A stretch of DNA of 64,000 nucleotides from an uncultured Verrucomicrobiae bacterium (GCA_937770485.1 CALJHX010000003.1:60415-124414), one strand, 5' to 3'; positions 395-37,805 are shown, numbered from the stretch's first letter. Notes: generated from the sequence alone by a model not told the origin. A program made the numbers and translations.

Positions 395-1708
395 ATGTTT
401 TTCGTGCAAACAAACAAATTGAAATCAGTACTATATGCAGCCGCGTTGATCGTCAGCGCAGTAAGCGTACAGGCAGGTGACTGGACACAATACCGAGGGC
501 CAAATTTTGACGGATCCTCCTCCGAGAAACTGGAAATACACGCTTGGCCAAGCGGTGGAATTAAGGCCGTTTGGAGAACTCCCACCCGGCTTGGATTTGC
601 CTCGTTCGCCGTAGCCAAGGGGCGAGCGTTCACGATCGTTATGGAAGAGGTTGATGGTGTTAACCGCGAAGTCTGCCTCTCGCTTGACGGCAACACCGGC
701 AAAAAACTTTGGAGCCAAGTGCTAAATATCGCCAAGTACGACGGCGGCGGAAACAGTGGCGCTAAAGACAACAAAGGTGGCGACGGACCACGCACCACGC
801 CCTCCAGCGATGGTGATCGTGTTTACATCCTCGACGGACGCCTAACGTTGCACTGTCTAGATGCCCAAAACGGCAGCAACCTCTGGACAGTCAATCTCGT
901 CAAGAAACACAAAGCCAAATCGATTCGCTGGCAGAATGCCGCAGCTCCAATCCTCGACGGTGATTTGGTTTTTGTCTGCGGCGGCGGTGAAAAACAGTCA
1001 TTGTTGGCAATTAACAAGTTATCAGGCGAGACGGTATGGAGCGGAGAAAGCGATCAAATGACTCACGCCAGCCCGATTATAGCGGACATTCACGGTGAGC
1101 GTCAGGTTGTTTTCTTCACGCAAAAAGGCTTGGTCTCCTGCAACAGCAAGAGTGGCAAGGTCCTTTGGCGCGCGGCTCATCCGTTCAAGATTTCCACTGC
1201 TGCTTCGCCAATCGTTGAAGGCGATATCGTTTACTGTTCCGCAGGTTACGGCGTGGGAGCAGCGGCTTTTCGAGTCAGTAAAAATGGTGGCGAATATTCC
1301 ACCAAGCAACTCTGGCGCAAGCCCAACAAGTTGATGAACCACTGGAGCACCCCGGTCTGCATCGAGGGTCATCTTTATGGGATGTTTCAGTTCAAGGAGT
1401 ACGGTGACGGACCCCTCAAATGCGTTGAGTTGGAAACTGGCGAAATCAAGTGGTCGAAGTCAGGTTTTGGGCCGGGGGGGGTTATCCTCGTCGATGGAAA
1501 ACTGATCAGCACCAGCGATGCGGGCGAAGTGGTTGTCTCAAAAGCGATGCCAAAAGCATACAGCGAGATAGGCCGTTTCAAAGCCATCGACGGCAAGTGC
1601 TGGACTCACGCCGCTTACAGTAATGGGCAAGTCTACGTGAGAAGCACGAAAGAAGGAGTTCGCTACGACCTCCAAGGCAGCGTGGCGGTTCGCCGACTCA
1701 ACCGTTAA
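395..1708 (+). CDS. Secreted PQQ-like (BamB-like) beta-propeller repeat protein
   Basis: 437-aa ORF with an N-terminal signal peptide (..SAVSVQAGDW). It has the GDWTQYRGPNFDG opening and repeated ..G..W motifs typical of PQQ-like propeller proteins of PVC bacteria. Confidence 0.7.
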   Translation: MFFVQTNKLKSVLYAAALIVSAVSVQAGDWTQYRGPNFDGSSSEKLEIHAWPSGGIKAVWRTPTRLGFASFAVAKGRAFTIVMEEVDGVNREVCLSLDGNTGKKLWSQVLNIAKYDGGGNSGAKDNKGGDGPRTTPSSDGDRVYILDGRLTLHCLDAQNGSNLWTVNLVKKHKAKSIRWQNAAAPILDGDLVFVCGGGEKQSLLAINKLSGETVWSGESDQMTHASPIIADIHGERQVVFFTQKGLVSCNSKSGKVLWRAAHPFKISTAASPIVEGDIVYCSAGYGVGAAAFRVSKNGGEYSTKQLWRKPNKLMNHWSTPVCIEGHLYGMFQFKEYGDGPLKCVELETGEIKWSKSGFGPGGVILVDGKLISTSDAGEVVVSKAMPKAYSEIGRFKAIDGKCWTHAAYSNGQVYVRSTKEGVRYDLQGSVAVRRLNR

Positions 1709-1860
1709 TTATCTTGTTGCCTGCGAGGCGATTTTTTTCAGAGCGGGTGATGGTCTGGAAAGAGTTCAGTTTCTCGGGTGGGGTGCCTCCCGATGTTACC
1801 TGTAAAGAGCGTGAACTATAACGGCCTGTCGAACACAAAAGTAATCGGGTTGAGGACCTG
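1655..1860 (+). repeat. Left copy of a ~200-nt duplicated segment (3' end of the PQQ-like gene plus downstream spacer)
   Basis: CCGTTAATTATC..GTTGCCTG.GAGG..TTTTTTCAGAG.GGGT.. and ..GGAACTATAACG.C.T.T..AACAC recur at 37447-37650, at about 70-85% identity by eye. A weak hairpin plus T7 follows the stop codon. Confidence 0.6.
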
Positions 1861-1920
1861 ATAGGGATCAACCGCAAGGGTGATTTGGGGGTTATAGGCT
1901 TTGTGCTGAACTACAAACAC

Positions 1921-2213
1921 AGCTACCTGATGGACCTGGTGCTGACGTGGAGCAGTGCAGCCGGGGGGCTGTCAATCTTGTGAATGAGAGGGCTGGAAGT
2001 GTCGTGACTCCTTTGCATGTGGTGGCTGTGTATGGAAGCAGGGAAACAGCCGAACTGTTAATCGCCAAGGGTGCGGATGTGAATGCGAAGATAGAGCCTG
2101 AGTCGAGCACCGCTAGATTTTGTCGAATCTAAAGAACTCAAAGAAATTGCCTGCCTCCTTATAGCAAACACGGCGGCAAGACGGGTGCCGAATTGAAAGC
2201 TGAAGGGGAATAG
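1921..2213 (+). pseudogene. Ankyrin-repeat cassette pseudogene (frameshifted, lacks the signal-peptide end)
   Basis: ..GADV.., VTPLHVVAVYGSRETAELLIAKGADVNAK, then TPLDFVESKELKEIACLLI, then KHGGKTGAELKAEGE* lie in three different frames with an internal stop. Confidence 0.7.
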
Positions 2214-2234
2214 CCCAAACTGTCTCTAGGGAAA

Positions 2235-2257
2235 CAGTTAAAACACCTTGAAAACTG
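2235..2257 (+). promoter_or_regulatory. Conserved 23-nt motif CAGTTAAAACACCTTGAAAACTG, 28 nt upstream of the 2286 start
   Basis: The same motif, with 1-2 differences, occurs at 5180-5202 and 6677-6700, each time oriented toward a downstream start codon. It contains TTGAAA. Function is not established. Confidence 0.35.
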
Positions 2258-2285
2258 CGACAATGGGGATAATTGTTACCTCGCT

Positions 2286-4445: not shown

Positions 4446-4511
4446 AAGCTGAAGGGAAATAAAACACCTTCTACTCACAACAATCCCAGCCGTGCTAATG
4501 GTTGGGTGTGG
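4445..4511 (+). repeat. Decayed cassette junction (..KAEGK stop/start region plus signal peptide) with ATG mutated to ATA
   Basis: AAAGCTGAAGGGAAATAAAACACCTTCTACTCACAACAATCCCAGCCGTGCTAATGGTTGGGTGTGG compares with the intact junction GAAAGCTGAAGGCAAATGAAACACCTCCT(A/G)CTCACAACAATCGCAGCCGTGGTGCTGGTGGGGTGTGG at 34460 and 35405. Confidence 0.75.
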
Positions 4512-4621
4512 AAAACTCAGTAAGGTATCGAAAATATGGTGCGCTCGAAAGGGCTTAAACCTTCACGCCTTTTGGTCACAACCACCTCAAGATTGCATGC
4601 CTACCAATTCCGCCATGAGCG

Positions 4622-4903
4622 TCATTGATTACGATTTTTTATCCTCCAAAGGAATGGCAGATAGGCTGTCAGTAGTCCGAAGATCAAAGTGATCAAGATT
4701 GGTGTGAAATATTCATCAAGTTCTCCAATACGGAGTGATCCAATCAGAAGGATCATTTTGAAATTTTCGACAACCCCTTGCGCGATTTCGGGGTTAGGAA
4801 GGTTTTCCTCAATCAGGTAGGCCACGCAGGCGCAGTAGACGAGGAATCCCAAAAAACTACCCCCAAAAAAACATAGTAAAACGGCTAGTCCCTTAAGCAG
4901 CAT
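4622..4903 (-). CDS. Small hypothetical membrane protein
   Basis: 93-aa ORF with 2-3 hydrophobic helices. It starts 3 nt after the stop of the collapsed cassette ORF. No recognisable family. Confidence 0.35.
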   Translation of the reverse strand: MLLKGLAVLLCFFGGSFLGFLVYCACVAYLIEENLPNPEIAQGVVENFKMILLIGSLRIGELDEYFTPILITLIFGLLTAYLPFLWRIKNRNQ

Positions 4904-4906
4904 TGA

Positions 4907-5151: not shown

Positions 5152-5179
5152 TGTAAGCCAACAGTCAACCTAATGAGTT

Positions 5180-5202: not shown

Positions 5203-5212
5203 CTGTCACTAA

Positions 5213-7928: not shown

Positions 7929-7944
7929 ACATCGGATTATGGGT

Positions 7945-25636: not shown

Positions 25637-26187
25637 CAGATCGAACTAACATTACAAGAAGATTGACTCATATCAGATTCCTAAACTAGCAATTTAATTT
25701 TTAAATTCAAACTTTATCAAGATTCAACAATTGTGATGATATTATGAATAATGTTAAAAAAGTTAGTTATGGAGAACTTATCTGCCGCATAAGAATCACA
25801 TTTGGCATTATTTTTTTTTGATTTTTCATTGTGCGCCAGTGGTTTTTGTCAGAGCTCGGGACTGATACATGCTAGGCCTAAAGTAAAATGCGAATTCGTT
25901 GTTGCCTCAGAAGACGTTAGCGATACTTTCACCGGTGACGAAGCGGCCAAGTAGTTTTCCATTTGGCGGCACCACTGTCCTGAAGTGCCTCTCGAGGGGA
26001 ACTGCAAGAGCCTCTGCTCTCCGCATCCGCATCTCTGAAACCCTCAAATGGCTTGCCTACCACTTCAAAAGAGAGGCAGGACTAATGGAGCCCTTCGCCC
26101 CCTCAAGCACCAGCTTAGCCTTGACTCCCGGCGCTGGCCTGCACCTGCACATCAAAAGGCCCCAGCCTACCGCCCCCGTCCCGCACC

Positions 26188-26284
26188 TTGACCCCGTGCT
26201 TCGCGCCCGACTAGTATAGGCCATGCACCGACCTTACCTGAAGCCCATCAATCTGGCCAAAACCGAGGCAGCTCGCAAAACGCT
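26188..26284 (+). promoter_or_regulatory. Sigma70-like promoter (TTGACC-N18-TAGTAT) plus leader, copy B
   Basis: -35 at 26188-26193 and -10 at 26212-26217. Aligns with the minus-strand copy at 15152-15260. Confidence 0.5.
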
Positions 26285-28222
26285 ATGAATCATCTACTAC
26301 TCAAAACAATCACAGCCTTTCTCATGGTGGAGATGAACATGTTTATTCCTGGCTCCGCCTGGGCCGTTGAGGATGGCTTGGTTTTCGATGCAAAGCTTGG
26401 ACACTACAAAGATCTTTCTTATGAAGCCTTGTCAGACAAGGGGTTACCTTGGAAGGAGCGCACACAGTTGTTTGGAGGTGAGACGCTTCATTACGGTGGT
26501 TTAACGGGGATGCAGCGCTTGGCCAAACGGAGGGAACTCGAAGTGCTACTGGCTACAATCAAGATGCGCGAAACGAGCAACTGGGCTGATCCGAAGTTGG
26601 CCGAGCGCGTTGAAACAGAAATTCACACTTGGCTTTATGCACAAATCCAAAATATGCCCGAGAAGTATGCTGAAACTAATGTTTACCCACTTAGAACCGG
26701 TGCGGTTGGATTCTTTCGCGCTTACGAAATTTTCGGAGATAAAAAATATCTCGAAGCTGGGTTGAATCGTACGGATGTAATTTTAAAAGCGCAGTGGCCG
26801 AAAGGGCATTGGCCGTGGGGGACAAGGCTTGGGGAAAACTTCGTGCGAATTCAGGATGGTTTCAACAACGAGCCGTTTTGGATCATGCTCTATGCCTACA
26901 AGTTGAGTGGTGATAAAAAGTATTTCGAATCTGCGAGGCGTTGCGCAGATGTGCTGCTTTCGTTGCAGCGCAGAAATGGCGGTTGGCCGGATCAATGGTC
27001 TTTTAACGGTAGTTCATCAGGGCATTCTGGCGTTATGCGAGGTGTGTCATTTAATGACAACGCCACGAATTCCTGCGTGCAAATGATGGTCGCCATGTAT
27101 CATATGACAGCCGACAAGAAGTATATTGCCAGATTATCTGAGCTGGGCAGATTTGTTGCCAAATCTAAAATAGGTGAAGGAATACTTGTTGGCTGGTGTG
27201 AGCAATACAATGACGACGGGAGACCGGTACGGGCTCGTCAATACGAGATCGAATTGCCTTATCCACGTGCTTTGACGCGTGGTGTTGGGCCATTGTTAGT
27301 CTGGCTTTATCTGATGGACAACAATGAGGCGCATATGGATTTGTTGAGGAGAGCCTACGCTTGGCATGAACATGTTCGCCAAGAGGAGATTAAACCGCAG
27401 GTTCTTTCACATTGGAGGGCGATGAGCCGAATGTGGTCGCCTTCACATCATTCGATGACACAAAATTATTTGATGGAATATCGGCCGGGCTGGCCGGATG
27501 CTTATTTGCCGGATGGTTCCAATTGGGGACGAGTGCTGAGCTTTCGTTTGATGCCGTGGAACCGAGTCACGCCGGAGCAAACGACAAAATACGACAGCTT
27601 TATCGACCATGGTTGGCCCCCAGTGGAGGAGTTGGCCAGAATGGCAAGTGCAAATCAGGCTCCGCCGCGCGGGTACAATATGTACGTTCATTGTCATTCA
27701 TCGATCGGTAATTCGTTGAGCGAAATCCGTCGAGCACTGCTTGAACACAAACGCGGAGGACGCGAAGGGATGCTCAAGTATTATTCAAACCCAACCAAGT
27801 ACACAGCGGATCAGTATTTGCAGGCGCGTGTCGATTCAGCTAAGCGTGCGCTCGATTTGAGGAATCGCCGTATGGCTTATCCATTTTCTAATTCTCCAGG
27901 CTATACGGGAATGGCTGCAATGAAAGATTTTAGCTTTCTCGGATCCAAAAGCCGTTGGTATGGCAAGACCGGCACAAAATGGGGTGCTGCATTTCAAAAT
28001 GTTTACCCGTCTCCCAGTGTAACTTGGTATCAATGGCAATTTATTTACGACATGAAGTTGGCGCATGGAGAAATTGATTCAGAAGCGGCCGCACGAGGTG
28101 GGCGTGGCTTTGAAACGGTCGCCAGCCAAACTCATTTGGATTCTTGGGACGTACTTGGTGAATGGGGTATGGGAGTTCTGGAAAGGGAGAACCATTTCGA
28201 CGTTCCGTTGGATAAGGACTAG
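26285..28222 (+). CDS. PL10-like pectate lyase (PelA/Pel-15E-type alpha/alpha barrel) with a cassette-derived N-terminus
   Basis: 645 aa. LQRRNGGWPDQW, VSFNDNATNS, GWCEQYNDDGRPVRARQYE resemble Pel-15E/PL10 boxes. The first 33 nt match the ankyrin-cassette start at 29/33. Confidence 0.55.
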   Translation: MNHLLLKTITAFLMVEMNMFIPGSAWAVEDGLVFDAKLGHYKDLSYEALSDKGLPWKERTQLFGGETLHYGGLTGMQRLAKRRELEVLLATIKMRETSNWADPKLAERVETEIHTWLYAQIQNMPEKYAETNVYPLRTGAVGFFRAYEIFGDKKYLEAGLNRTDVILKAQWPKGHWPWGTRLGENFVRIQDGFNNEPFWIMLYAYKLSGDKKYFESARRCADVLLSLQRRNGGWPDQWSFNGSSSGHSGVMRGVSFNDNATNSCVQMMVAMYHMTADKKYIARLSELGRFVAKSKIGEGILVGWCEQYNDDGRPVRARQYEIELPYPRALTRGVGPLLVWLYLMDNNEAHMDLLRRAYAWHEHVRQEEIKPQVLSHWRAMSRMWSPSHHSMTQNYLMEYRPGWPDAYLPDGSNWGRVLSFRLMPWNRVTPEQTTKYDSFIDHGWPPVEELARMASANQAPPRGYNMYVHCHSSIGNSLSEIRRALLEHKRGGREGMLKYYSNPTKYTADQYLQARVDSAKRALDLRNRRMAYPFSNSPGYTGMAAMKDFSFLGSKSRWYGKTGTKWGAAFQNVYPSPSVTWYQWQFIYDMKLAHGEIDSEAAARGGRGFETVASQTHLDSWDVLGEWGMGVLERENHFDVPLDKD

Positions 28223-28395
28223 TCAATTGTCACAAGGAAGTCGTTGAACTGTTGATTGCCAATGGTGCGGATGTGAGTCCGAAGGATATGAAAGATCAAA
28301 CACCACTAGATATGACCAAGCATCCCGAAACCGCTGGCCTCTTCCGTAAGCACGGCGGCAAGACTGAGAAGGAGCGGGAAGCTGAAGAAAGATGA
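28216..28395 (+). pseudogene. 3' fragment of an ankyrin cassette with no start
   Basis: The open frame reads [59 protein letters not shown]. It overlaps the stop of the previous gene, and its TGA overlaps the next ATG (ATGA at 28392-28395). Confidence 0.75.
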
Positions 28396-28886
28396 AATAT
28401 CTCCTAACTGTAACAATCACAGCTGTACTGTTGGCGGGGTGTGAGCCATTGCAGTCAAATGCAAAGTCATTACATCTTGCTGCCGAAGAAGGGGATATCG
28501 AAGCAGTAAAGGAGCATTTAGCCGCTGGAACGGATAAGAATGTGAGGGCGGGTAAGTGGGGAGACACTCCATTGCACCGTGCAGCTTTTTGGGGTTACAC
28601 AGAGATCGTCGAATTATTGATAAATAATGAAGTAGATGTGAACGCCAAGGATGACTATGGATGCACACCTTTACATGATGCGGCGGAATACTCTCACTTG
28701 GAAATCACTGAAATGCTGATTGGTAGGGGTCCGGACATGAATGCACTGGATAACAACGGTGATACACCCCTGGACTTGGCCAGCGGTAAAATAGCCGACC
28801 TCCTACGCAAACACGGAAGTAAGACAGGTGAAGAATTGAAAGCTGAAGGGAAATTAAAACGAAACAAAGCCGAGGATTTACGCTAA
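28392..28886 (+). CDS. Ankyrin-repeat lipoprotein (cassette family), extended by stop-codon loss
   Basis: [17 protein letters not shown] lipobox, about 3 ANK repeats (TPLH.AA..G..E.V.LL...G.DVNA), then [20 protein letters not shown] followed by 10 extra codons. Confidence 0.85.
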
Positions 28887-29596
28887 TTGAACTGCTGGTA
28901 GTCATCGCCATTATCGCAATCCTTGCGGGCTTGCTGTTGCCCGCATTGGCTAAGGCAAAATTTAAGGCCAAGGTGACCAACTGCACTTCAAACTACCGGC
29001 AGTGGGGAATATCTGCCAACATGTACGCCATGGATTTCGAAGACAAACTGCCTTCGTTCAAAATGCCGCGCACCGGCCTTAACCCATGGGATGTTTCCAT
29101 CGATATGGCCCCCGGCATTGAGCCGTATGGATTAACTGTGCCGATGTGGTTCTGCCCGACCCGCCCCAACGAATTCACTGATGCAGACCAGTGGGCGCGA
29201 AAAAACCTCAAGCGAGCCATCAGTTCCATCGAGGACCTAAACCGCTACTATCGGCGTAGCTATGGCAGTTTTGCCATCATCAAGCACAACTGGTGGGTGC
29301 CTCGGAACGCCGGAGGTTTCATGTTTCCTACACCAAAAATGAACGGCGACGCAAAAGACCCCAACGGATGGCCGGTCTCCCTGTCGGATTCCCGTGCAGC
29401 AGACCGTCCAATCATTTCCGATTTAACTGCTATGAAGGTGGGGGGCAAGCCAACCCCGGCCAAGGCAGGTGGCGGCCATCAATATCAAGGAAGCCTTCAC
29501 TCTGTGAACGTGGCTTTTGGCGACGGCCATAACGAGACGCGGCCCATTGCCAAAATTAAACTAAGGCACACCGGCAACTGGCATGCGTTTTATTGA
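28853..29596 (+). CDS. Prepilin-type N-terminal cleavage/methylation domain protein (pseudopilin-like, DUF1559-like), with ATG replaced by ATT
   Basis: (I)[35 protein letters not shown].. compares with paralog [23 protein letters not shown] at 51939. It has the C-terminal ..NVAFGDGH.. box. The longest ATG/TTG ORF begins only at 28931, inside the pilin helix. Confidence 0.6.
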
Positions 29597-29605
29597 CGGC
29601 ATTAC

Positions 29606-29653
29606 AAACACGGCGGCAAGAGCAAGTATAACCTGGAAGCCGCTGGGAACTAA
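29606..29653 (+). repeat. Cassette 3' relic (KHGGKSKYNLEAAGN*), 10 nt after the pseudopilin stop
   Basis: AAACACGGCGGCAAGAGC..GAAGCCGCTGGGAACTAAACCAC. Confidence 0.6.
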
Positions 29654-29815
29654 ACCACTTTCATGGCGGCACTCGGACTGCAAGGGTTCGCCGTTCACAG
29701 GCATATGAAAGTATCATTGGCAACAATCAGGAAGTTAGTCAGCGACAGGACTGACTTCCTAGAGAAAATCAAAGGCGTTGCTGTGCTGGCCAGCTTCTTG
29801 ATTTGTTGAAAACTG

Positions 29816-30295
29816 TTGCACGAGGATATACTCGCACTGTTTTTTCTGGTATGGGTTTTTATGTTCCTTGCCGTTATGATTAGCGATTTCATCAAATTGA
29901 TTTCCACCTTTGATTCCGACAGTCTTAGGGATCTTCCTGAAATTTACAGTCCAACGATTGAATTCGAAGACCCAATCAACACAGTCCAAGGGTTAGACAA
30001 CTTGTATTTGATGTTTGAAGATCTTCTTAAGGTGTTTTCTGAAATTGAGATTCAAGTCAAAGAAACCTCATCAACGGATCATACGGCCTTCGTTCGTTGG
30101 CTTATGACATATCGGTTTAGAAAAAAGAAATACTCTATCGATGGGGTAACTCATCTGAAATTCGATTCCTCGGGATTAATTTGTAAGCACAAAGATTATT
30201 GGGATGCATCTTTTCCTCTATACGGGACGTTTCCGTTGCTTGGTTCTTTAATGCGAGGCATAAAAAAAATAGCTGCTGTGAAAATCCCCCGATAG
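29816..30295 (+). CDS. NTF2/SnoaL-like fold protein
   Basis: ..IYSPTIEFEDPINTVQGLDNL..FVRWLMTYRF..GVTHLKFDSSGLICKHKDYWD resembles the NTF2-family pattern (..F.DP..G..W......G.s.l.fd..G.I..H.DYwD). The real start may be the internal M (MISDF..). AT-rich. Confidence 0.45.
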   Translation: MHEDILALFFLVWVFMFLAVMISDFIKLISTFDSDSLRDLPEIYSPTIEFEDPINTVQGLDNLYLMFEDLLKVFSEIEIQVKETSSTDHTAFVRWLMTYRFRKKKYSIDGVTHLKFDSSGLICKHKDYWDASFPLYGTFPLLGSLMRGIKKIAAVKIPR

Positions 30296-30324
30296 TTTGT
30301 ACGTTATTTATAAAATCAAGTAGA

Positions 30325-30387
30325 CAAATTGACGGACTCCTCCGCAAACACGGCGCCAAGACGAGTGAAGAATTGAAAGCTGAATAA
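30325..30387 (+). repeat. Cassette 3' relic (QIDGLLRKHGAKTSEELKAE*)
   Basis: CTCCTCCGCAAACACGGCGCCAAGACGAGTGAAGAATTGAAAGCTGAATAA, 30 nt after the previous stop. Confidence 0.65.
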
Positions 30388-30537
30388 AGGGTAGAGCCTT
30401 AAAGATAAATATTTGAGATACATGGGGACATGGTACTTTTAATAGATAAAACTTGTATTTTATTTTACAGAAAAAGTGTTTACACAACCCTTCGCTCAAG
30501 TGATTGTTCTTTACTATTAATTAACTCCAACAGGAAT

Positions 30538-33500
30538 ATGAAAAGAAAAACCATTCAATCATTTTTCAAATATTTGTACATGAGCGCACTTGTCGCGCTG
30601 GTGGCTGTCGTGACGCCGGTGACAGCCCAGACGTTGCTTGAGGAGGACTTTTCCTCCGGTTTTGAGGAGTGGACCGTGGTGCATCCCCCGGGTGCCTTCA
30701 ACGGTTCCACCCGGTGGCAGGTTGGTGCTTCGGGAGAGACGCTTTTTGAAAACAGCAATGTCCGGGCGCCCGGCTCGGCAGGAATGTTGATCAATGAAGC
30801 CAAGACCGGTGAAAACTACACCTACAAGGCGCTCCTGATGAGCGGGGATGACGACGGCATCGGGCTGGTGTTTGGCTACAAGGATGCATCCAACTTTTAC
30901 CGGATCATGTTTGCCTCCCAAGAGGAGCGTAACACGTTTCCCGGTGAGGGTTGGCTGCTGGAGCGGGTTGTGGATGGTAGTGCCATTCATCTGGGTGGGG
31001 ACGATTACAGTGAAGATTGGGAACCTGATTTCATCTATATACAAGGGTATCCGTTTGAAGTGACGATCAAAACCAAAGGAAAGAAATTGACCATTACCGT
31101 GGTAGATGATCCCGAGGAAGACGGGACCGAGTACGAACTGGTCAGCAACCTTACAATCCCCGCGGACGCGGACGGCAACGTGGGGCTTGCGAGTTGGGAA
31201 CAGGCAGGCGGAATTCCCTCCGGGTCTCACTTTAGTGATATTTCGGTGGACGGGAAGGAAGTCGCGATACCCAATCCGCTTGAGGGATGGGAGGAAGTGA
31301 TCCCCCTAAACTATGAGGAAAATGATTTCCTGGAGGGTGGGAACGAAGGCATACCCCTGTGGAGTGTTGGAATCACTACCGATTCTGTAGCTGGGGGGAT
31401 CCTGACCGAGTCGAGCAACAGTGGGTTGGCCGGCATCGAGATTGAGGGAGTGGATGAAGAATTCTACAGCAATCTCGACTGGGTGAGCGGTATGCTTGTC
31501 AAGGGTGATGCGAAGTGGAAGGACTACCGCATTTCCACAAAGCTGCATCCCTATCCCCACTGCGCCTTCACAGGATGCTGGGTCAATGGGCATGGGGTAG
31601 TTTTCCGGTACAAGGATCCGGAGAATTTTTATCGGCTCTCCTTTTCGAGTCGGAATCCTGGCGACGGCTTGCCGCGCCAGGGTGTTTCGATCCAAAAGGT
31701 GGTTAACGGGGAATGGAGCGAGGTGTTTTGGGAGAAGGGGGCGGCGTTTTCCTCCAAGAAATTTGTCCCTAGCGGCAAGGCGGACCAAAGCGAATTTAAC
31801 CTGAACATGTCGATTGTTGGCAATCAGCTGGAGTTTAGCATCGTGAACGACCCGGACGGGATGGCTAAGGTGTTTAACTATGGCCCGATCGAAATCACCG
31901 GGGTTGATTCAGGCAAGGTAGGTTTTTTCAGCTGGTACCAGCACAAGCTGGACATCCATCATATCAAGGTGGAGGAGATTGCCGGAATGCCCTTTGAGGT
32001 GTTCAGCAATTTTGGAAAACCGAGTCCACCGGCCGGTTTGACCAACTTCGAGCCGGGGACAAAGGTGCTTGCGACAGTTCCCAGTCCTATTGTGGATCCT
32101 CCGGGATTTCGCCGTAAGGTGACCGGTTGGAGCGGGACTGGCTCTGCTCCCAAGGGGGGCATCTGGTTTTTGCCGGGAAACCCGAGGCTGTCATTCGTCA
32201 TCAACCAGGCCTCCTCGTTGACTTGGAATTGGAAGACTGAGGTCAAGGTCAACATTACTGCGGATGGAGGAGGGAAGGTAACCGGTGGAAGTTCCAAGTG
32301 GTACAAGGAGGGATCCAAGTTGATCGTCACTGCGGTACCCAGTACTGGCAATATGTTTGATGGCTGGTACGGAGCTGTCGCAAGTAAAGAGCGCAAGCTG
32401 ACTGTGTATACCGACCGTCCGCTGGATTTGATTGCTGCTTTCCGTCCGGACTCGGATCGGGACAAGATGGACGATGATTGGGAGAAGAAATATATTGGCA
32501 ACCTTAACGAACAAGGGAGTGGCGACTTTGACGGGGACGGGGTGAGCAACATGGACGAGTACCGTCGTCGCACCAACCCGGCGGCGGAGGAGGAGCTGGT
32601 GTACGAGGTGCCCTCCAACTGGAAGAATCCAAATGTATCCAATCCCTATACGGTCGGGCGTATGGTCGTGGCGGACTTCGGCAAGGGCTACAGTGGTATC
32701 TGGGAGAACAGCGGAACTGGAATCGCTGCTAGCAGCGACGAATTTGAATTTATTGATTGGCGCGGGCCAAAGGTCGTTCTGAAGGACTCGGTCTGGGAGG
32801 AGGACTGGAAGGATGGCGTTTACGAAGCGACCTTTGTGGTCGGAGATTCCGACACGAGCTGTATTTATTTTCGCTATCAGGATGAGGACAACTGGTACCG
32901 GGCCTCGATTTCAGGGAGAGAAGGAGACGGAATTCAAAAGACTGACAAATGGGGCTCCTATACTGTCAATGGTGTGACTGCGGCGCAGATTGGCTTAACC
33001 ATCCAGAAGAAGGTAAATGGGGTGTATCAGTTAATTGAGGAATACGACGATTATATGATTCCTGATCCGGAGGATGACACGCTGAAGATCATCAAGTTGA
33101 AGGTCTCCGCGAATGGGAATTCCTTCAAGGTGCAGGCTATTCCCTACGACCCGATTAATCTGAAAGACTTTGATGATGATGAAGCCTCCGAGGAAGTGTC
33201 GTTCAATGATGAAGCTCTGGCAACCGGCTGTGTGGGAGTTGGCTTTGCTTATCAGGGTAATGGTTTTAACTGGTGTCGATCATGTCCTGGGGGACCGGCG
33301 GACACGGCGACAGAAAATATCCCAGTTGGTTCTGGTGTTTTGTTAAATGATTTATCCATCCAAGTGAACGAAAAAATCGTCTTTCGTGACTCATGGACCT
33401 TCCACGACACTCCAACAGGTCTGCCCGTTGGTTGGTTCAATCCTTTTGCGAGCCAAGAAGGCTCCATGGCAGGAGAATGGGTGCCTAGCGCTCACGGTGG

Positions 33501-34311
33501 ATTTATCCAGATGTCCCCATTTTTCCTGCCAAGCCTCACGAAAAAAGACATCGCTAAGGCAGACGGCGAGGGTCCTGTACTACTAGCTCCGCTGGTAAAA
33601 GAGCAGGATTTTGTCCTTGAGCTAGGCTTGCTGTCACACAACGCCAATAATTTGCTAACAACAGTCGACGGTCTCGGTTTTGTCTATGATTACATCGATG
33701 AAAACAATTTTGCCCGTGTGCTTTTCGTGAATCCAAAGGCGCTCAACCTCGAAGGCGGGTCAACAATACCTCGGGGCATTAACATAAGTCGCAAGATCCA
33801 GGGACAGTGGCGTGATATCATTGTTGGTGATCTATCCTTCACCTATCAGCGAGGAAGACCTTTCGATGTTGCATTTACGGCTGAAAAAGGGAATTATCAT
33901 TTAGTGATAAAAGAACACGACCCAATGTTCGTTTGGAATAGTTGGGAAAGGGTTTACGTTCCGGCTACACCGAACGAGATCAAAAAAGGTCCAAAGTCCG
34001 CAGAATTGCACTGGAGTGACAAAGAAATCACCAGTGGAACTCGATATGGGCTAACTACCTGGGGTTCAAGATATGCCCATTTTCTTCATGCTAGAGCTTA
34101 CTCACTTGATGGCAAGAATTCACAGCCGTCCAAACCACCCGTTCTTGCCGTTTCACGCAACGGTAACAAAGTGAGCATTACATGGGAGGGCGAAGGCACT
34201 TTGGAAAGTGCGGAGCAGATCGGAGGTCCGTGGTCTGAGGTTCGTGGCGTTTCCAGTCCAACCACTGTTCAACCTGTTGCCAAGCAAGGTTACTACCGTT
34301 TGAAGAGATGA
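30538..34311 (+). CDS. Large secreted protein with four ConA/LamG-like beta-sandwich modules, an InlB-B-type repeat, a TSP3-like Ca-binding linker and a shared C-terminal module
   Basis: I prefer the start MKRKTIQSFF.. with a signal peptide. The signature recurs four times: GIGLVFGYKDASNFYRIMF, HGVVFRYKDPENFYRLSF, SCIYFRYQDEDNWYRASI, LGFVYDYIDENNFARVLF. Also present: GGGKVTGG..GSKLIVTAVPSTGNMFDGWYG and DSDRDKMDDDWE..GDFDGDGVSNMDEY. Confidence 0.7.
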   Translation: MKRKTIQSFFKYLYMSALVALVAVVTPVTAQTLLEEDFSSGFEEWTVVHPPGAFNGSTRWQVGASGETLFENSNVRAPGSAGMLINEAKTGENYTYKALLMSGDDDGIGLVFGYKDASNFYRIMFASQEERNTFPGEGWLLERVVDGSAIHLGGDDYSEDWEPDFIYIQGYPFEVTIKTKGKKLTITVVDDPEEDGTEYELVSNLTIPADADGNVGLASWEQAGGIPSGSHFSDISVDGKEVAIPNPLEGWEEVIPLNYEENDFLEGGNEGIPLWSVGITTDSVAGGILTESSNSGLAGIEIEGVDEEFYSNLDWVSGMLVKGDAKWKDYRISTKLHPYPHCAFTGCWVNGHGVVFRYKDPENFYRLSFSSRNPGDGLPRQGVSIQKVVNGEWSEVFWEKGAAFSSKKFVPSGKADQSEFNLNMSIVGNQLEFSIVNDPDGMAKVFNYGPIEITGVDSGKVGFFSWYQHKLDIHHIKVEEIAGMPFEVFSNFGKPSPPAGLTNFEPGTKVLATVPSPIVDPPGFRRKVTGWSGTGSAPKGGIWFLPGNPRLSFVINQASSLTWNWKTEVKVNITADGGGKVTGGSSKWYKEGSKLIVTAVPSTGNMFDGWYGAVASKERKLTVYTDRPLDLIAAFRPDSDRDKMDDDWEKKYIGNLNEQGSGDFDGDGVSNMDEYRRRTNPAAEEELVYEVPSNWKNPNVSNPYTVGRMVVADFGKGYSGIWENSGTGIAASSDEFEFIDWRGPKVVLKDSVWEEDWKDGVYEATFVVGDSDTSCIYFRYQDEDNWYRASISGREGDGIQKTDKWGSYTVNGVTAAQIGLTIQKKVNGVYQLIEEYDDYMIPDPEDDTLKIIKLKVSANGNSFKVQAIPYDPINLKDFDDDEASEEVSFNDEALATGCVGVGFAYQGNGFNWCRSCPGGPADTATENIPVGSGVLLNDLSIQVNEKIVFRDSWTFHDTPTGLPVGWFNPFASQEGSMAGEWVPSAHGGFIQMSPFFLPSLTKKDIAKADGEGPVLLAPLVKEQDFVLELGLLSHNANNLLTTVDGLGFVYDYIDENNFARVLFVNPKALNLEGGSTIPRGINISRKIQGQWRDIIVGDLSFTYQRGRPFDVAFTAEKGNYHLVIKEHDPMFVWNSWERVYVPATPNEIKKGPKSAELHWSDKEITSGTRYGLTTWGSRYAHFLHARAYSLDGKNSQPSKPPVLAVSRNGNKVSITWEGEGTLESAEQIGGPWSEVRGVSSPTTVQPVAKQGYYRLKR

Positions 34312-34477
34312 TCGAAATGGGCCACTGTTAGTCAAGCATGGGAATTGGGATGGGCCTCTTTGCACAGGCGGTTTATTCAGTTTACAACACCATAAGTGGA
34401 GACGAAATAAATCCGCCGAGCTTTTCCGCAAACAAGGTGGTAAGACGGGTGAAGAATTGAAAGCTGAAGGCAAATGA
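34304..34477 (+). pseudogene. Start-less ankyrin cassette relic overlapping the stop of the large gene and the start of the next ankyrin gene
   Basis: The frame reads ..[41 protein letters not shown]. Its TGA overlaps the ATG at 34474. Confidence 0.65.
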
Positions 34478-35421
34478 ATCACCTCCTACTCACAACAATC
34501 GCAGCCGTGGTGCTGGTGGGGTGTGGGTCGAGTGTGGATATTTGGATAGGTGCGCAAACTGGAAATATCGAAGCAGTCAAACAGCACTTGGCTGATGGGG
34601 TTGATGTAAATTCTAAGAGTGATATTGGTAGGACGCCACTTGATGTAGCAATAGCTTTTAAACAGCCCCTAATCACTGACCTACTCCGTAAACACGGCGG
34701 CAAAACGAGAGATCAACTAAAAGCAGCTGAATCGATTGTAGTGGCTGTTGAATTAGGAAACATTGAAGCTGTTAAACAGCATTTGAATGGTGGAACCGAG
34801 GTGAATGCGAAGGGTGGGACTGGAAGGACTCCTTTGCATTTGGCGGCTATTGAAGGCCACAAGGGAATCGCCGAACTGCTTATCGCCGAAGGTGCGGATG
34901 TGAATGCGAAGACTAAAGATGGCAAATCACCGCTAGATGAGGCCGTCAACCCCTTCTACAACAAAACCGAAATTGCTAATCTCATCCGCAAACACGGTGG
35001 CAAACATGGAACGATTCATAGTGCGGTTGGCGGTGGAGATGTCGAAGCCGCAAAGGAGTTCTTGGCTGCTGGTGCTGATGTGAATGTGAAGGATAAGCGT
35101 GGGTTCACTTCTTTGCATTGGGCGTCTATTTCCGGTCACAAGGAGGCTGTCGAACTGCTAATCGCCAAGGGTGCGGATGTGAATGCGATGAGGGGTGGTG
35201 GAGGGACTCCTTTGTCTTATGCGTCTTCTTGGGGTCACGAGGAAATCGTCGAACTACTTATCGCCAAGGGTGCGGATGTGAATGTGAAGGATGCTTTTAG
35301 CGAAACCCCACTGGATGTTTCTACTCATCCAGATAACCCAAATGCCTCCGCAGAAACCGCCACCCTTCTCCGCAAACACGGGGGCAAGACCAAGAAGGAA
35401 CTGGAAGCCGCAGGCAAATGA
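34474..35421 (+). CDS. Ankyrin-repeat lipoprotein composed of three fused cassette bodies
   Basis: MNHLLLTTIAAVVLVGC lipobox. Internal tail motifs: TDLLRKHGGKTRDQLKAAES and ANLIRKHGGKHGT. Terminal motif: ATLLRKHGGKTKKELEAAGK*. Confidence 0.9.
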   Translation: MNHLLLTTIAAVVLVGCGSSVDIWIGAQTGNIEAVKQHLADGVDVNSKSDIGRTPLDVAIAFKQPLITDLLRKHGGKTRDQLKAAESIVVAVELGNIEAVKQHLNGGTEVNAKGGTGRTPLHLAAIEGHKGIAELLIAEGADVNAKTKDGKSPLDEAVNPFYNKTEIANLIRKHGGKHGTIHSAVGGGDVEAAKEFLAAGADVNVKDKRGFTSLHWASISGHKEAVELLIAKGADVNAMRGGGGTPLSYASSWGHEEIVELLIAKGADVNVKDAFSETPLDVSTHPDNPNASAETATLLRKHGGKTKKELEAAGK

Positions 35422-36077
35422 AACACCTCCTGCTCACAACAATCGCAGCCGTGGTGCTGGTGGGGTGTGGTGAGTCGTCAATTCACAAAGCTGCCGAAGA
35501 AGGAAAGATTGAAGCCGTTAAACTGTATTTGACTGCTGGTTCAGATATTGAATTGAAATGTACTACATGTGGAGGCACAGCGTTAAGTCATGCAGCGCAT
35601 AGAGGTCATAAGGAAATAGTCGAATTACATATATCACAGGGAGCAATAATTAAAGCAAAGGGCAAGCATGGAGAGACTCCTATACATCAGGCAGCTTTAG
35701 CTGGTCACAGAGAAATTGTTGAACTCCAAATCGACAAAGGTGCCTACGTTAATTGGAAGGATAAAGTTGAGGCGACCCCGTTACATCGAGCGGCTCAAAG
35801 AGGTCATAAGGAGGTTGTCGTACTACTTATAAAAAAAGGCGCAGAAGTAAACACGAATGATATTCTTGAACAGACCCCTTTGCACTTTGCATCAAAACTC
35901 GGCACGAAAGAAGTTACTGAACTGCTTATGCAAAAAGGCGCGGATGTAAATGCGACAAAAGATGACGATAGCACGCCACTAGATATGGCCATCAAACACA
36001 AACGCACCGAAATCGCCAACTTCCTCCGCAAACACGGCGGCAAGACGGGTGCAGAATTGAAAGCCGCTGGCAACTAA
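35418..36077 (+). CDS. Ankyrin-repeat lipoprotein (cassette family)
   Basis: MKHLLLTTIAAVVLVGC lipobox, about 5 ANK repeats, ANFLRKHGGKTGAELKAAGN*. The start overlaps the upstream stop (ATGA). Confidence 0.9.
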   Translation: MKHLLLTTIAAVVLVGCGESSIHKAAEEGKIEAVKLYLTAGSDIELKCTTCGGTALSHAAHRGHKEIVELHISQGAIIKAKGKHGETPIHQAALAGHREIVELQIDKGAYVNWKDKVEATPLHRAAQRGHKEVVVLLIKKGAEVNTNDILEQTPLHFASKLGTKEVTELLMQKGADVNATKDDDSTPLDMAIKHKRTEIANFLRKHGGKTGAELKAAGN

Positions 36078-36166: not shown

Positions 36167-36838
36167 TTAATCAGCCGAATTAACGTCTGCAGCCAAAATT
36201 GATTGCAATTCTTCACCAGGAGGGCCTTTGCGATATTTCCAACGATCAGCAACCTCAATTTGACCCCAATTTGCAGGAAATGAATCCACGCTAAAATTGA
36301 TCAGACTGTTCATAAGCCATTTCCCTTTCTCTTTGTTGAATACAAGATTGTATGCAAAGCACATTGTTTTTCTGGGCGTTTGATTCGGTGTTGTATGAAA
36401 AACATCAATCAAACTCAGTAGAACAGAATCTTTGGAAACTGGCTGGTAGGCCAGCTTGTATATTTTGAGGCTTTGAAATTCAAATGGACTGCTGATAGCT
36501 GGGTAAATTTTATTACGAACGGAGTTGTAGAAGGCAGTAGTTTCACTGATGTTCGAAAAGGAGACTGTTGGATTTCCGACGAAGCAAAACTGTTCACTAA
36601 ATAGACCGCTCATAACTTCTTTGGATAATTCGTTTTGATTCAGTTTTTCCCAGTATCTATAGAAGGTTTCTAGAGCTCCCTTGTAGCGGGGTTCGATGTC
36701 TACAGCGTGGGACGTATTAGCAAACCACGAAAAACCGAGAAATAAACAAGCGCGTAGAATTAAACCGTAATTAGACCAGAGCATAAAAAAAATACATGGG
36801 CATTTTGAGAACTTCAAGAGGTTTTTTGCGTTATTCAC
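36167..36838 (-). CDS. Hypothetical secreted protein
   Basis: 223-aa ORF. The likely start is the internal MLWSNYGLILRACLFLGFSWFANTSHA signal. AT-rich, with no family recognised. Confidence 0.4.
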   Translation of the reverse strand: MNNAKNLLKFSKCPCIFFMLWSNYGLILRACLFLGFSWFANTSHAVDIEPRYKGALETFYRYWEKLNQNELSKEVMSGLFSEQFCFVGNPTVSFSNISETTAFYNSVRNKIYPAISSPFEFQSLKIYKLAYQPVSKDSVLLSLIDVFHTTPNQTPRKTMCFAYNLVFNKEKGKWLMNSLINFSVDSFPANWGQIEVADRWKYRKGPPGEELQSILAADVNSAD

Positions 36839-36994
36839 CTCTTAGTCCGATTGCGTCTCAGGAGCAGTGACGTTGGGACGGAAGGCGGCCCCTGTGGAGA
36901 GTTGCGGCGGATCCGGGTCTAAAGCTGGTTGACTCACGGCACACTTGGCAGACCTCTTGACGGTGAACTGGCAGTGGCGTCTCATTGGGTTGTT

Positions 36995-37402
36995 ATGATC
37001 AAGCTCGACCATATTGCCGTTGGGGTGTCGAACCTTGACGCTGCCATCGACTTTTATGAGCAGAAAATCGGGCTGAAATTTCTGTTCAAAAAAGTGGACG
37101 AGGCCCACGGTGAAGCCTTCGCCTATCTCGAGATGAAGGGGGCGCGCCTCGAGTTGCTCCAGTCGCTGCGTTTGCCTAAGAGCCGCGCCGCCGATGATCA
37201 TTCGTTTTGCCCTCACATGGCATTTGCGTCTAATGACATTCACGCCACCGAGCAGGATCTGCGTGAAAAAAAAGTGATCATCCTGAAGGGGCCGATGGAG
37301 ATCCCCGGCATGGTTCGCTGGCTGTACGCCGCAGACCCGGACGGCAACGTGCTGGAGTTTGTGCAGTGGCTAAAACAGGAGAAGCCGATCAATCAGACTT
37401 GA
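36995..37402 (+). CDS. VOC-family (glyoxalase I / dioxygenase fold) protein
   Basis: MIKLDHIAVGVSNLDAAIDFYEQKIGLKF..LELLQ..HMAF..DPDGNVLEFVQ. The start is chosen at the ATG at 36995 rather than the longest ORF. Confidence 0.8.
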   Translation: MIKLDHIAVGVSNLDAAIDFYEQKIGLKFLFKKVDEAHGEAFAYLEMKGARLELLQSLRLPKSRAADDHSFCPHMAFASNDIHATEQDLREKKVIILKGPMEIPGMVRWLYAADPDGNVLEFVQWLKQEKPINQT

Positions 37403-37446
37403 GTTGATTTAGCTGCAGGATGCCGTGGTCTGGCCAGTGACTTGTC

Positions 37447-37650
37447 TTCGCTTTGATTCTCCAACCCAACATTCTCGTTTCGTTGACGTTGGCCGTTAAT
37501 TATCCAGTTGCCTGAGAGGTCGTTTTTTCAGAGAGGGTCATAGTTTCTGGAGCAATCTGTTTCAGGGGGGGGCTCCTTTTCTCCAATGTAGAATAATAAC
37601 ATATGGAACTATAACGACTTCTGAAACACTAATAAATACCCCTGACATAA
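37447..37650 (+). repeat. Right copy of the ~200-nt duplicated segment, ending 66 nt from tRNA-Ser
   Basis: Aligns with 1655-1860. This includes a decayed copy of the last codons of the PQQ-like gene (..LRFDSPTQHSRFVDVGR* against ..VRYDLQGSVAVRRLNR*). Confidence 0.6.
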
Positions 37651-37715
37651 ATGAACATCAGTGAAAACGGTGTAACTGTGACCCACAGAAGTCGTAAGTC
37701 GTTGATAGAGAAAAA

Positions 37716-37805
37716 TGGCGGAAGGGGAGGGATTCGAACCCCCGGAACGATTGCTCGCTCAGTGCTTTTCGAGAGCACCCCGTTCGACCACTCCGGCACC
37801 CTTCC
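37716..37805 (-). tRNA. tRNA-Ser (anticodon CGA), class II with a long variable arm and encoded CCA
   Basis: The minus strand reads GGAAGGGTGCCGGAGTGGTCGAACGGGGTGCTCTCGAAAAGCACTGAGCGAGCAATCGTTCCGGGGGTTCGAATCCCTCCCCTTCCGCCA. It has a 7-bp acceptor stem, anticodon stem GTGCT/AGCAC with loop CT-CGA-AA, and T-loop TTCGAAT. Confidence 0.9.

Follow-up and report, generated by a model that had tools for sequence, protein, structure and literature searches.

Two copies of a dispersed repeat in the window

The window, a 64,000-nt stretch of DNA from an uncultured bacterium whose genus of uncultivated marine bacteria probably belongs to the Verrucomicrobiota, carries a gene for a PQQ-like beta-propeller protein (395..1708, plus strand; Pfam domain PF13360) and, on the minus strand, tRNA-Leu(gag) (4537..4622) and tRNA-Ser(cga) (37716..37805), both located with ARAGORN. 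An initial annotation had already placed tRNA-Ser here and noted a rise in G+C beyond it, and both observations stand: G+C is 0.497 across 1655-37715 and 0.567 across 37806-42000, against a genome mean of 0.564. It had also described a direct duplication of segments 1655-1860 and 37447-37650, bracketing the 36 kb between them. This repeat is real. Local alignment of the two segments scores 57, compared with 16.1 +/- 2.0 for dinucleotide shuffles (z ~21), and a profile HMM constructed without the left copy, on ten others, matches both the left copy (1700-1839, envelope 1672-1844, E 1.2e-24) and the right (37432-37714, E 2.5e-76). Across the whole repeat family, conservation is highest in the boxes singled out earlier, CCGTTAATTATC..GTTGCCTG.GAGG..TTTTTTCAGAG and GAACTATAACG. 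Identity between the two copies, estimated by eye at 70-85%, measures 65% over the 140 positions they share and 82% within a 61-nt core.

The supposed pair belongs to a multi-copy family of repeats about 240-290 nt long, which we refer to as arms. The genome itself holds three copies, the third on contig C13; among 25 genomes of the genus, 12 have matches, often at contig ends, and 42 marine metagenome contigs carry the repeat. Most members bear two GGTGTAAC sites in tandem. Many arms begin at the distal block, at model positions 54-63, with unrelated DNA upstream.

The left copy (1700..1840, plus strand) is a truncated arm in which only model positions 56-196 are represented. It breaks off at about 1840, has neither GGTGTAAC sites nor contact with a tRNA, and is followed by DNA (1845-2000) without significant likeness to the proximal arm. 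The arm's CCGTTAATTATC box contains the last codons of the PQQ gene together with the stop codon TAA (1706-1708). The gene end further upstream (1655-1699), previously read as a decayed part of the duplication, is not supported as part of the repeat: the profile match starts only at model position 56, near 1700, and PQQ orthologs that lack the repeat share codons up to ~1690 without any profile match. A metagenome contig orthologous to the left copy (L099) is 87.4% identical to window positions 269-1840 and continues, past the left-copy match, into a full arm and then a tRNA-Gly(ccc) fragment.

This ortholog bears on a possible local origin for the left copy, as the distal half of a tRNA-Leu(gag) arm split from its proximal half by insertion of an S15-peptidase cassette. 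The orientation of the left copy would fit, an arm does lie at tRNA-Leu(gag) in G007, and for three of four proximal arms the score against window positions 4446-4536 was reached in only 2-8 of 500 shuffles. Yet the profile HMM returns no match beside tRNA-Leu, even when 4.8 kb is searched, and the likeness is explained by the 5' stub of a cassette (about 4455-4512, ATG changed to ATA), 88% identical to cassette starts, which adjoins the tRNA-Leu(gag) 3' end in place of an arm. With the metagenome contig tying the left arm to a tRNA-Gly fragment instead, we consider a split tRNA-Leu arm very unlikely. The window's tRNA-Leu(gag) has two A-C mismatches in its acceptor stem and the T-loop TTTAAGC.

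The right copy (37430..37715, plus strand) is a near-complete arm that, by profile HMM and family alignment, spans model positions 3-291 and runs right up to the 3' end of tRNA-Ser(cga), with no base in between. The 66-nt gap reported between the two reflects only where likeness to the truncated left copy stops; family sequence extends to the tRNA. Within this copy lie the distal block GGCCGTTAATTATCCAGTTGCCTGAGAGGTCGTTTTTTCAGAGAGGGTCATAG (37491..37543, plus strand), conserved across family copies, and a single GGTGTAAC site (37669..37676, plus strand), identified by family alignment and profile HMM; a 13-nt deletion took out the other. We read the remaining site as a candidate arm-type integrase binding site. 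Adjoining the arm is a glyoxalase/VOC gene (36929..37402, plus strand); in G007, a VOC-and-arm pair 87% identical to this one lies beside tRNA-Leu(gag). Further upstream, Pfam matches and comparison of cassette 5' ends identify a cassette array (26285..36077, plus strand) comprising a lyase with a cassette-type start, ankyrin lipoproteins, a pseudopilin, a SnoaL protein and a 1293-aa protein. Nearly all ankyrin-cassette material had been placed between the repeats, but such cassettes also occur elsewhere: cassette ends match on at least 12 other contigs of the genome.

Could the two copies nonetheless be the diverged ends of one old ~36-kb insertion that duplicated its target beside tRNA-Ser? 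They lie in the same orientation, the right one at a tRNA, and the G+C between them is below the genome mean. However, rather than being each other's closest relatives at two boundaries only, they are members of a multi-copy family, fall in different clades when arms are compared, and have their nearest relatives elsewhere: a G021 copy for the left (76%) and the contig C13 copy for the right (84%). The left-copy ortholog adjoins a fragment of tRNA-Gly, not tRNA-Ser, and no tRNA-Ser 3' fragment lies anywhere on the window's contig. The interior contains a second tRNA gene and blocks shared with relatives in other contexts. Moreover, the gene that adjoins tRNA-Ser in G010 has its counterpart in this genome 47 kb from tRNA-Ser, well past the left copy, and that 47-kb interval also holds a gene block conserved across the genus. 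A single bracketed insertion is thus extremely unlikely. The 36 kb between the copies is a mosaic that includes genes common across the genus in other contexts; of the variable region proposed earlier, the edge at tRNA-Ser marked by the right copy survives, while the bracketing of one 36-kb unit and the target duplication do not.

Arms, tRNA genes and islands in related genomes

Wherever the proximal end of an arm can be read, it adjoins either a tRNA gene, at its 3' end, or a 3' fragment of a tRNA, 27-49 nt long. Seven tRNA species are represented, Gly(ccc), Ser(cga), Glu(ttc), Arg(tct), Arg(cct), Leu(gag) and His(gtg), and arm clades do not sort by tRNA type. A dispersed multi-copy repeat was one of the findings that the initial annotation had named as speaking against its own reading, with the difference that this family is tied to tRNA boundaries in general.

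At three loci, the 3' part of the tRNA recurs at the far end of an island. The G007 contig C185 reads tRNA-Leu(gag), arm, VOC gene, ~11 kb of further sequence, a 27-nt tRNA-Leu fragment (26/27 identical) and DNA syntenic with contig C27 of the window's own genome. Metagenome contig L071 has two tRNA-His copies, one decayed and one intact, that enclose an island whose arm lies beside the intact gene. Contig C13 of the window's own genome reads fragment, arm, cargo, integrase pseudogene, P arm, 31-nt tRNA-His fragment and flank; its left junction is a chimeric fragment rather than a tRNA. The right copy in the window displays the first half of this arrangement, contact with a tRNA 3' end. Arrays of tRNA fragments also occur, with four Arg fragments on contig C25 of the same genome and two Gly fragments on C6. 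Cases in which an arm lies beside a tRNA fragment could equally be explained by a later island having displaced the tRNA end, and so they do not on their own prove that the arm is element DNA.

The initial annotation had pointed to empty and occupied tRNA-Ser sites among relatives as informative, and both exist. Almost every relative has a different 3' flank at tRNA-Ser(cga): a full arm is present in G000, G007, G017 and G019, a stump remains in G014 (46 nt) and G009 (87 nt), and G010 and G011 have no arm.

Presence and absence at one and the same tRNA gene argue against the arm being native chromosomal DNA, or a functional RNA or terminator (a 3' trailer or small RNA) downstream of tRNAs and unrelated to integrases. 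Such an origin would accommodate the constant position of the repeat downstream of tRNAs and on the tRNA's strand, its T-run, and the lack of a nearby integrase at most copies. But we obtained no Rfam match at the gathering score, the consensus folds weakly (-6.85 kcal/mol) and gains no net support from covariation (RNAalifold covariation term +1.26; 2 of 27 pairs compensatory), and the arm yielded neither a terminator nor a promoter signal. The failure of arms to group by tRNA type, the inclusion of the arm within tRNA-to-fragment islands in G007 and L071, and the occurrence of the GGTGTAAC module in both the arm and an integrase-side P arm, described below, also weigh against it. We regard a native or RNA function as improbable.

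Integrase-bearing elements and the arm module

Intact elements of the family run in the order tRNA fragment, core, integrase, DUF3987 primase-helicase, small ORFs and ankyrin cassettes. The displaced tRNA 3' fragment measures 27-49 nt, and the core, readable directly from the sequence, consists of two 9-bp inverted sites with a 9-nt spacer between them. The P arm carries a pair of GGTGT(A/T)AC sites directly before the integrase start codon. The tyrosine integrase is 384 aa long; after it come ORFs of 275, 96 and ~341-350 aa, and the primase-helicase that follows these is succeeded by three small ORFs and then by ankyrin lipoprotein cassettes, the next genes in the series after integrase and DUF3987. 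The arm and a regenerated tRNA would follow, past the contig breaks.

Intact 384-aa integrases lie beside tRNA fragments at L102-L107, placing a tyrosine integrase next to an attachment site of the same element. On C13, the integrase is a frameshift-split pseudogene (PF13102 and PF00589) between the cargo and the His fragment. The N-terminal region of the integrase resembles the arm-binding type (MAWLRK..SPYWQA..DGR). Arm profile positions 192-254, which contain the GGTGTAAC pair, match the P arm before the integrase ATG at seven loci (C13, G016, G020 and L102-L105; E 0.0004-0.025), with a match at L107 that we rate weaker (E 0.013). Repeated short sites, candidate arm-type binding sites, are thus common to both arms, and at the same place, more distant family integrases carry tandem 9-11-nt repeats of their own. 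Because the GGTGTAAC-pair module also precedes the integrase start codon beside displaced tRNA fragments, we read the repeat as the tRNA-side (P') arm of integrative elements. Integrase and arm occur together in an intact element on no single contig, as every intact-element contig breaks in the cassette zone; C13 is the only locus with both, and its integrase is the pseudogene.

Tandem short sites near one end, a link to tRNAs, and a similar module at the other end of the C13 island might instead suggest a transposon-type end (Tn7-like, CRISPR-associated transposon or MITE) homing downstream of tRNAs. Several features speak against this. Island ends are 27-49-nt direct repeats of the tRNA rather than short target duplications; homology reaches the last base of the tRNA, with no fixed spacing; and the two modules share an orientation, where inverted ends would be expected. 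Linked to the repeat is a tyrosine integrase that has a SAM-like domain, and in place of transposase genes, none of which were seen in the elements, there are integrase and primase-helicase genes. We see only a slim chance that the arm is a transposon end. In support of the tRNA-associated variable region proposed earlier, the repeat belongs to integrase-type elements.

Both stretches in the window are thus probably relics of a dispersed repeat family that constitutes the tRNA-proximal (P', attL-side) arm of integrative elements, and they are independent of one another rather than the ends of one insertion. Judging from sequence, the integrase would bind the GGTGTAAC pairs on both arms as well as the core sites, one of which would be the tRNA's own T-loop and 3' T-stem (TCGAGTCC). 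Strand exchange would take place in the 5' strand of the T-stem, and the element would supply a new tRNA 3' end joined to its arm.

The right copy would then be the arm of a tRNA-Ser(cga) element that has lost its integrase half and far attachment site. Upstream of the array, directly before the first cassette, lies a frameshifted relic of the element's 148-aa ORF (25982..26220, plus strand; tblastn against the whole genome, E 1.4e-5), in which EVPLEGNCKSLCS aligns with EIPLEGNAKSLCS at 11 of 13 positions; its order and orientation are those of intact elements. The 5' ends of the array's cassettes are 91-93% identical to the first cassette of intact elements, and we read the array as cargo of the decayed element. 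Together, these features suggest an integrase-less remnant of ~12 kb at tRNA-Ser(cga), starting from the ORF relic at about 25982 and retaining cassettes, VOC gene and arm. Its left limit is drawn from this one frameshifted ORF relic and from composition, because the window holds neither an integrase, the nearest fragment being outside it at C3:46898-47131, nor a tRNA-Ser fragment. The left copy would be the middle part of another arm, formerly beside a tRNA-Gly(ccc) fragment, now fused to the PQQ gene and with its tRNA-side third replaced.

How one family came to occupy so many tRNA genes may be illustrated by two metagenome element contigs with 97.6% identity across 6.1 kb, whose integrases are 94% identical in protein. 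The adjacent fragment comes from tRNA-His in one and from tRNA-Leu(gag) in the other, and each has the near-universal T-loop sequence TCGAGTCC as one of its core sites. Surveys of the Islander type usually find a single target for each integrase clade. From the core sequences, retargeting would appear to need change only in the 9-nt spacer and the tRNA 3' end. An integrase lineage might accordingly be re-aimed at different tRNAs by swapping only ~100 nt beside the core, a proposal to which we give somewhat less than even weight; the His/Leu contrast comes from two short-read contigs that differ at a repeated module, and chimeric assembly is possible. If true, this would be a "tRNA-hopping" element family that has colonized at least seven tRNA species in one genus. 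The element would be the seed of ankyrin-cassette arrays, and dispersed arms would reshuffle neighboring genes between tRNA loci, as with the VOC-and-arm pair found at tRNA-Ser here and at tRNA-Leu in G007.

Comparison with known integrative systems

Our literature search found no description of this element family. The repeat family is new but of a familiar kind, and it is found at an unusually large number of different tRNA genes.

When an island integrates into a tRNA gene, that gene is restored and a displaced fragment stays behind (Islander, PMC4383910). Like these islands and P4-like elements, the present family integrates into the 3' part of a tRNA gene that element sequence restores, has its far end marked by the displaced 3' fragment and its integrase beside one attachment site, and carries repeated short sites on both arms together with a primase-helicase (DUF3987). 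Unlike Islander islands, one closely related arm family occurs at seven tRNA species, two 97.6%-identical element contigs lie beside different tRNA fragments (His and Leu), and arrayed ankyrin lipoprotein cassettes make up the cargo at the arm end.

Decayed elements have been well documented, as has tandem accretion at att sites (PMC5704250). As in CIMEs and accreted arrays, most arm copies have no integrase nearby and tRNA fragments form arrays; junctions of a fragment with an arm fit later integration into an occupied attachment site. The tRNA-Leu island of G007 keeps both attachment sites without an integrase and is a CIME by definition. The window copies keep at most one attachment site each, the right relic only the tRNA-side site and the left relic neither, and are therefore relics rather than CIMEs. 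Also unlike CIMEs, no conjugation or mobilization genes were seen in this family.

The closest parallel in site architecture is with lambda-type attP, which likewise has tandem sites on both arms (8 nt here), inverted 9-bp sites around a short crossover spacer, and an integrase with an N-terminal region of the arm-binding type, although binding in this family is predicted from sequence. It differs from lambda-type attP in that the spacer is 9 nt, not 7, and in that one core site is the tRNA T-loop itself.

A repeat family at tRNA 3′ ends

The initial annotation described a diverged direct repeat linking 1655–1860 to 37447–37650, and formal local alignment of these segments showed it to be real (score 57, against 16.1 +/- 2.0 for dinucleotide shuffles). 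A whole-genome BLAST search for further copies in the source genome (G000), a binned assembly of 3.3 Mb in 46 contigs that is 83% complete, found one more on contig C13, with 79% identity to the right copy over 225 nt; the window itself spans 60415–124414 of contig C3. When 60 related genomes were searched, matches were obtained in 12 of the 25 belonging to the same genus, along with a single weak one in a different family; many of them fall at the ends of contigs, as repeats would be expected to. A pattern scan of public metagenome contigs contributed 42 further loci, the repeat being present in all 42. Wherever the proximal neighbor of a copy could be read, it was a tRNA 3′ end, in the form of either a whole gene or a 27–49-nt fragment. 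Copies in related genomes touch the 3′ ends of tRNA-Arg(tct), His(gtg), Leu(gag), Glu(ttc), Ser(cga), and Gly(ccc) (ARAGORN), and the metagenome loci add Arg(cct), bringing the number of species to seven; the copies do not group by tRNA species. We read the repeat, hereafter the arm, as the tRNA-side (P′) attachment arm of tyrosine-integrase elements.

We built a profile HMM of 292 positions from ten copies, excluding the left copy of the window. In its alignment, a distal conserved block (GGCCGTTAATTATCCAGTTGCCTGAGAGGTCATTTTTTCAGAGAGGGTCATAG) is followed by a variable stretch of ~60 nt, a conserved box (GGAACTATAACGAC), and a proximal stretch (..CACTAAAACACATCCCTGACATCAATGAACATCAGTGAAAATGGTGTAACTTTTGGGTGTAACTTTGACC..AAGTCGTAAGTCATTGA), after which ~10 nt precede the tRNA. 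Many copies start at model positions 54–63, with unrelated DNA upstream, and the constant unit is therefore ~240 nt. The right copy spans positions 3–291, with a 13-nt deletion that cost it one of two GGTGTAAC sites, and the left copy covers positions 56–196 only. Homology of the right and C13 copies extends to the base before the tRNA 3′ end, which corrects the earlier view that the right copy stops 66 nt short of the tRNA. The idea that the arm encodes a structured RNA found no support, as there was no sign of one in the arm, and a promoter and terminator scan gave no signal within it. A phage or plasmid origin was likewise rejected, with no matches in IMG/VR, INPHARED, or PLSDB.

Integrase elements carrying the arm

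On contig C13, the arm (5723–6002) is preceded by a 31-nt tRNA fragment. Some 10 kb past it, the sequence runs through a tyrosine integrase pseudogene (PF13102 and PF00589, split by a frameshift), a short integrase-side module termed the P arm, a 31-nt tRNA-His fragment, and an aminotransferase gene; two relatives (G016 and G020) have this integrase, P arm, His fragment, and flank as well. A match to the arm profile also falls in the P arm, immediately ahead of the integrase start codon (ATGGTGTAGCTGTAGGTGTAAC), and the GGTGTAAC modules of the two arms share one orientation rather than being inverted. At the equivalent place, beside other tRNA fragments, integrases more distantly related within the family carry tandem 9–11-nt repeats of their own. 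The C13 island as a whole (L001, 5690–15680) is 10 kb long and holds a cNMP-binding/MGS gene and an RND efflux operon in addition to the integrase pseudogene. At its left junction lies a chimeric fragment that combines a T-stem of His type with an acceptor end of Glu type, which suggests that attachment sites of different tRNA types have recombined.

Protein searches of marine metagenomes returned many intact integrases of 383–384 aa (82–96% identity), and more distant relatives are labeled Verrucomicrobiota and Opitutaceae by their sources. The element contigs run from a tRNA fragment through the core, or crossover region, and a P arm with a GGTGT(T/A)AC pair to the integrase, followed by ORFs of 275, 96, and 341–350 aa, a DUF3987 gene (DNA helicase and primase families per PHROGs), ORFs of 102, 148, and 107 aa, and an ankyrin lipoprotein cassette, the start (MKHLLLTTIAAVL) and tail (KHGGKT..KAEGK) of which are the same as in the window cassettes. 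All contigs with intact elements break in the cassette zone, and none of them connects the integrase to an arm. A complete element was also sought in the genus genomes, where no DUF3987 gene turned up in any of 26; these are incomplete bins, and absence from the genus does not follow.

Judged by its sequence, the core can be read as two putative 9-bp inverted sites around a 9-nt spacer, namely GGGACTCGA-ACCCGCAAC-TCCAGTCCC beside the His fragment and AGGACTCGA-ACCTTCACC-TCGAGTCCT beside the Leu(gag) fragment. One site consists of the T-loop and 3′ T-stem of the tRNA; the 5′ strand of the T-stem forms the spacer, and it is here that displaced fragments have their inner end. A 40-kb metagenome contig (L112) bears a defense-carrying relative of the element family at 3160–17785, comprising five consecutive tRNA-Arg(tct) fragments, an integrase fragment, DUF3987, and McrBC-like/EVE defense genes. 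A distant relative of the element lies beside tRNA-Val(cac) in the source genome (C28:5273–8695), with an integrase and homologs of the 275-, 96-, and 341-aa ORFs (27–49% identity).

Two copies in the window

The right copy adjoins tRNA-Ser(cga) (37716–37805, minus strand), a locus taken initially for the edge of a tRNA-associated variable region. Comparison across relatives upholds this description: the upstream side of the tRNA is syntenic, and the downstream side differs in almost every genome. Lying 3′ of the tRNA are an arm and VOC in the source genome, a different arm subtype in G007, an arm in G017 and G019, stumps of 46 nt in G014 and 87 nt in G009 followed by genes like those of contig C41 of the source genome, DNA 98.5% identical to the source genome's contig C17 in G011, and sequence without any arm in G010. 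The reported compositional change at the tRNA stands as a rise in G+C, from 0.497 between the copies to 0.567 just past the gene (genome mean 0.564).

The cassette-rich, low-G+C stretch beside tRNA-Ser is most likely the remnant of an element with ankyrin lipoprotein cassettes at its cargo end. The 148-aa ORF of the element survives as a frameshifted relic (~25982–26220) directly ahead of the first cassette (26285), in an order and orientation that match intact elements. Because of this relic, we lean slightly toward a cargo-end remnant that would occupy ~25.98–37.7 kb, a limit drawn from the one relic and the low G+C, with the integrase half and the far site lost. In the arm-less G010, sequence upstream of a 1025-aa gene meets the last base of tRNA-Ser directly, in a precise junction, and the counterpart of this gene in the source genome lies 47 kb from tRNA-Ser. 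A 47-kb insertion relative to the G010 site was considered and rejected; the interval contains a three-gene block common across the genus, and the close relative G007 shares the source genome's junction. These 47 kb are therefore not one island, and the interval is a rearranged mosaic.

Between the 5′ side of tRNA-Ser and an acyltransferase gene, at 37927–37942, most relatives (G009, G014, G019, G010, G011, G002, and others) hold 3.7–4.7 kb that the window and G017 are without. To the left of the window, ~28 kb (C3:20015–48026) is missing from G010 and G011, in which the genes on either side adjoin each other; its right end carries an integrase fragment (C3:46898–47131).

The left copy (1700–1840) had been thought to include a decayed PQQ gene end. 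This was rejected: the profile match begins at ~1700, and the PQQ orthologs of three relatives, none of which matches the profile, share coding sequence up to ..YDLxGS (~1690) and then each end differently. A metagenome locus (L099) is 87.4% identical to window positions 269–1840, that is, the PQQ gene plus the arm from model position 54, and continues into a full proximal arm and a 30-nt tRNA-Gly(ccc) fragment. The window diverges from it at ~1840 and proceeds to an ankyrin relic and an S15 peptidase gene; the upstream neighbor of the latter is different in G014 and G019 and in G011 has no recognizable match in the source genome. Onward decay of the left copy to a tRNA-Gly fragment found no significant support in 1845–2000, where 233 of 1000 shuffles reached the observed score and likeness to the proximal arm was not significant. 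A reading of the left copy as a split arm of tRNA-Leu(gag) was rejected. The latter gene (4537–4622, minus strand) looks impaired beside the G007 copy, with acceptor stem mismatches A1-C72 and A7-C66 and a T-loop of GGTTTAAGCCC where G007 has GGTTCGAGTCC; possibly it is decaying or has been displaced, as with the decayed tRNA-His in the metagenome locus L071. Outside the window, ~2.3 kb beyond its left end (C3:57990–58174), a relic of the 103-aa ORF of the element hints at a second remnant.

The initial annotation saw the two copies as the ends of one 36-kb insertion. We found no tRNA-Ser fragment on the contig and, as the annotation itself had observed, no integrase within the window. Between the copies lie genes for peptidases, a BNR protein, CotH, a lyase/GDSL protein, a PSCyt/PSD1 and DUF1501 pair, an oxidoreductase, and an ABC1 kinase, many of which occur singly in relatives at 85–93% identity and in other contexts. 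These observations speak against a single insertion. The copies closest to the left one are those of G021, L099, and L065, and the closest to the right one is that of C13. We conclude that the left and right copies are independent relics; the window architecture is thus explained by an element remnant at tRNA-Ser and an unrelated second relic. Over 388–18170, relatives match the window in blocks of one gene each (PQQ 388–1697, S15 peptidase 2204–4484, 5331–5915, BNR 6677–7972, S9 peptidase 7989–10620, CotH, esterase 14262–15251, and lyase/GDSL 15282–18170). In the cases checked, the neighbors of PQQ, the S15 and S9 peptidases, and the esterase vary between genomes, and gene order here is unusually fluid.

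Target choice and the tRNA islands

The metagenome element loci L102 and L107 share 97.6% identity across 6127 nt, with integrases at 94% identity and differences confined to ~100 nt next to the core. L102 adjoins a His fragment, and L107 a Leu(gag) fragment of 27 nt. This contrast, together with the failure of arms from seven tRNA species to cluster by tRNA, suggests that the element may be easily re-aimed among tRNAs; the loci are short-read contigs that differ at a repeated module and could be chimeric assemblies. If the multi-tRNA reading is true, the element would be a natural example of an easily re-aimed site-specific integrase, with bearing on integrase target choice and on the design of programmable integration tools. 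Apart from the targeting question, it is an ordinary decayed tRNA-linked island. The arm profile and the GGTGTAAC pair provide a practical marker: in the fragmented genomes of this marine group, whose contigs often break at arm repeats, they can locate the edges of islands.

Under the standard model, the tRNA is restored by the island that enters it, and a fragment is displaced (PMC4383910). A 61-kb contig of a relative (G007:C185), on which no integrase is left, reads tRNA-Leu(gag), arm, VOC gene, ~11 kb, and a 27-nt tRNA-Leu fragment (26/27 identical), beyond which synteny with contig C27 of the source genome (87–92%) sets in. L071 reads aminotransferase flank, decayed whole tRNA-His, 6 kb of cargo, arm, and intact tRNA-His. 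Both loci place the arm at the island's inner end on the tRNA side, the position of the P′ arm in the standard model (PMC4383910).

Arrays of tRNA 3′ fragments without this arm family also occur in the source genome (C25:130020–135036, C6:23355–34322, C1:40841–40885, and C13:47602–47645), with four Arg(tct), two Gly(ccc), one Thr(cgt), and one Gln(ttg) fragments; tRNA genes thus bear stacks of several further island families. Junctions that pair a fragment with an arm were found on C13, on G021:C60, and in many Gly cases, and they fit a scenario in which the same tRNA later received another island. This is seen directly in L093, where an intact tRNA-Gly is followed by 3 kb, a fragment, and an arm stump. 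Such junctions correspond to the accretion pattern that has been reviewed for integrative elements (PMC5704250).
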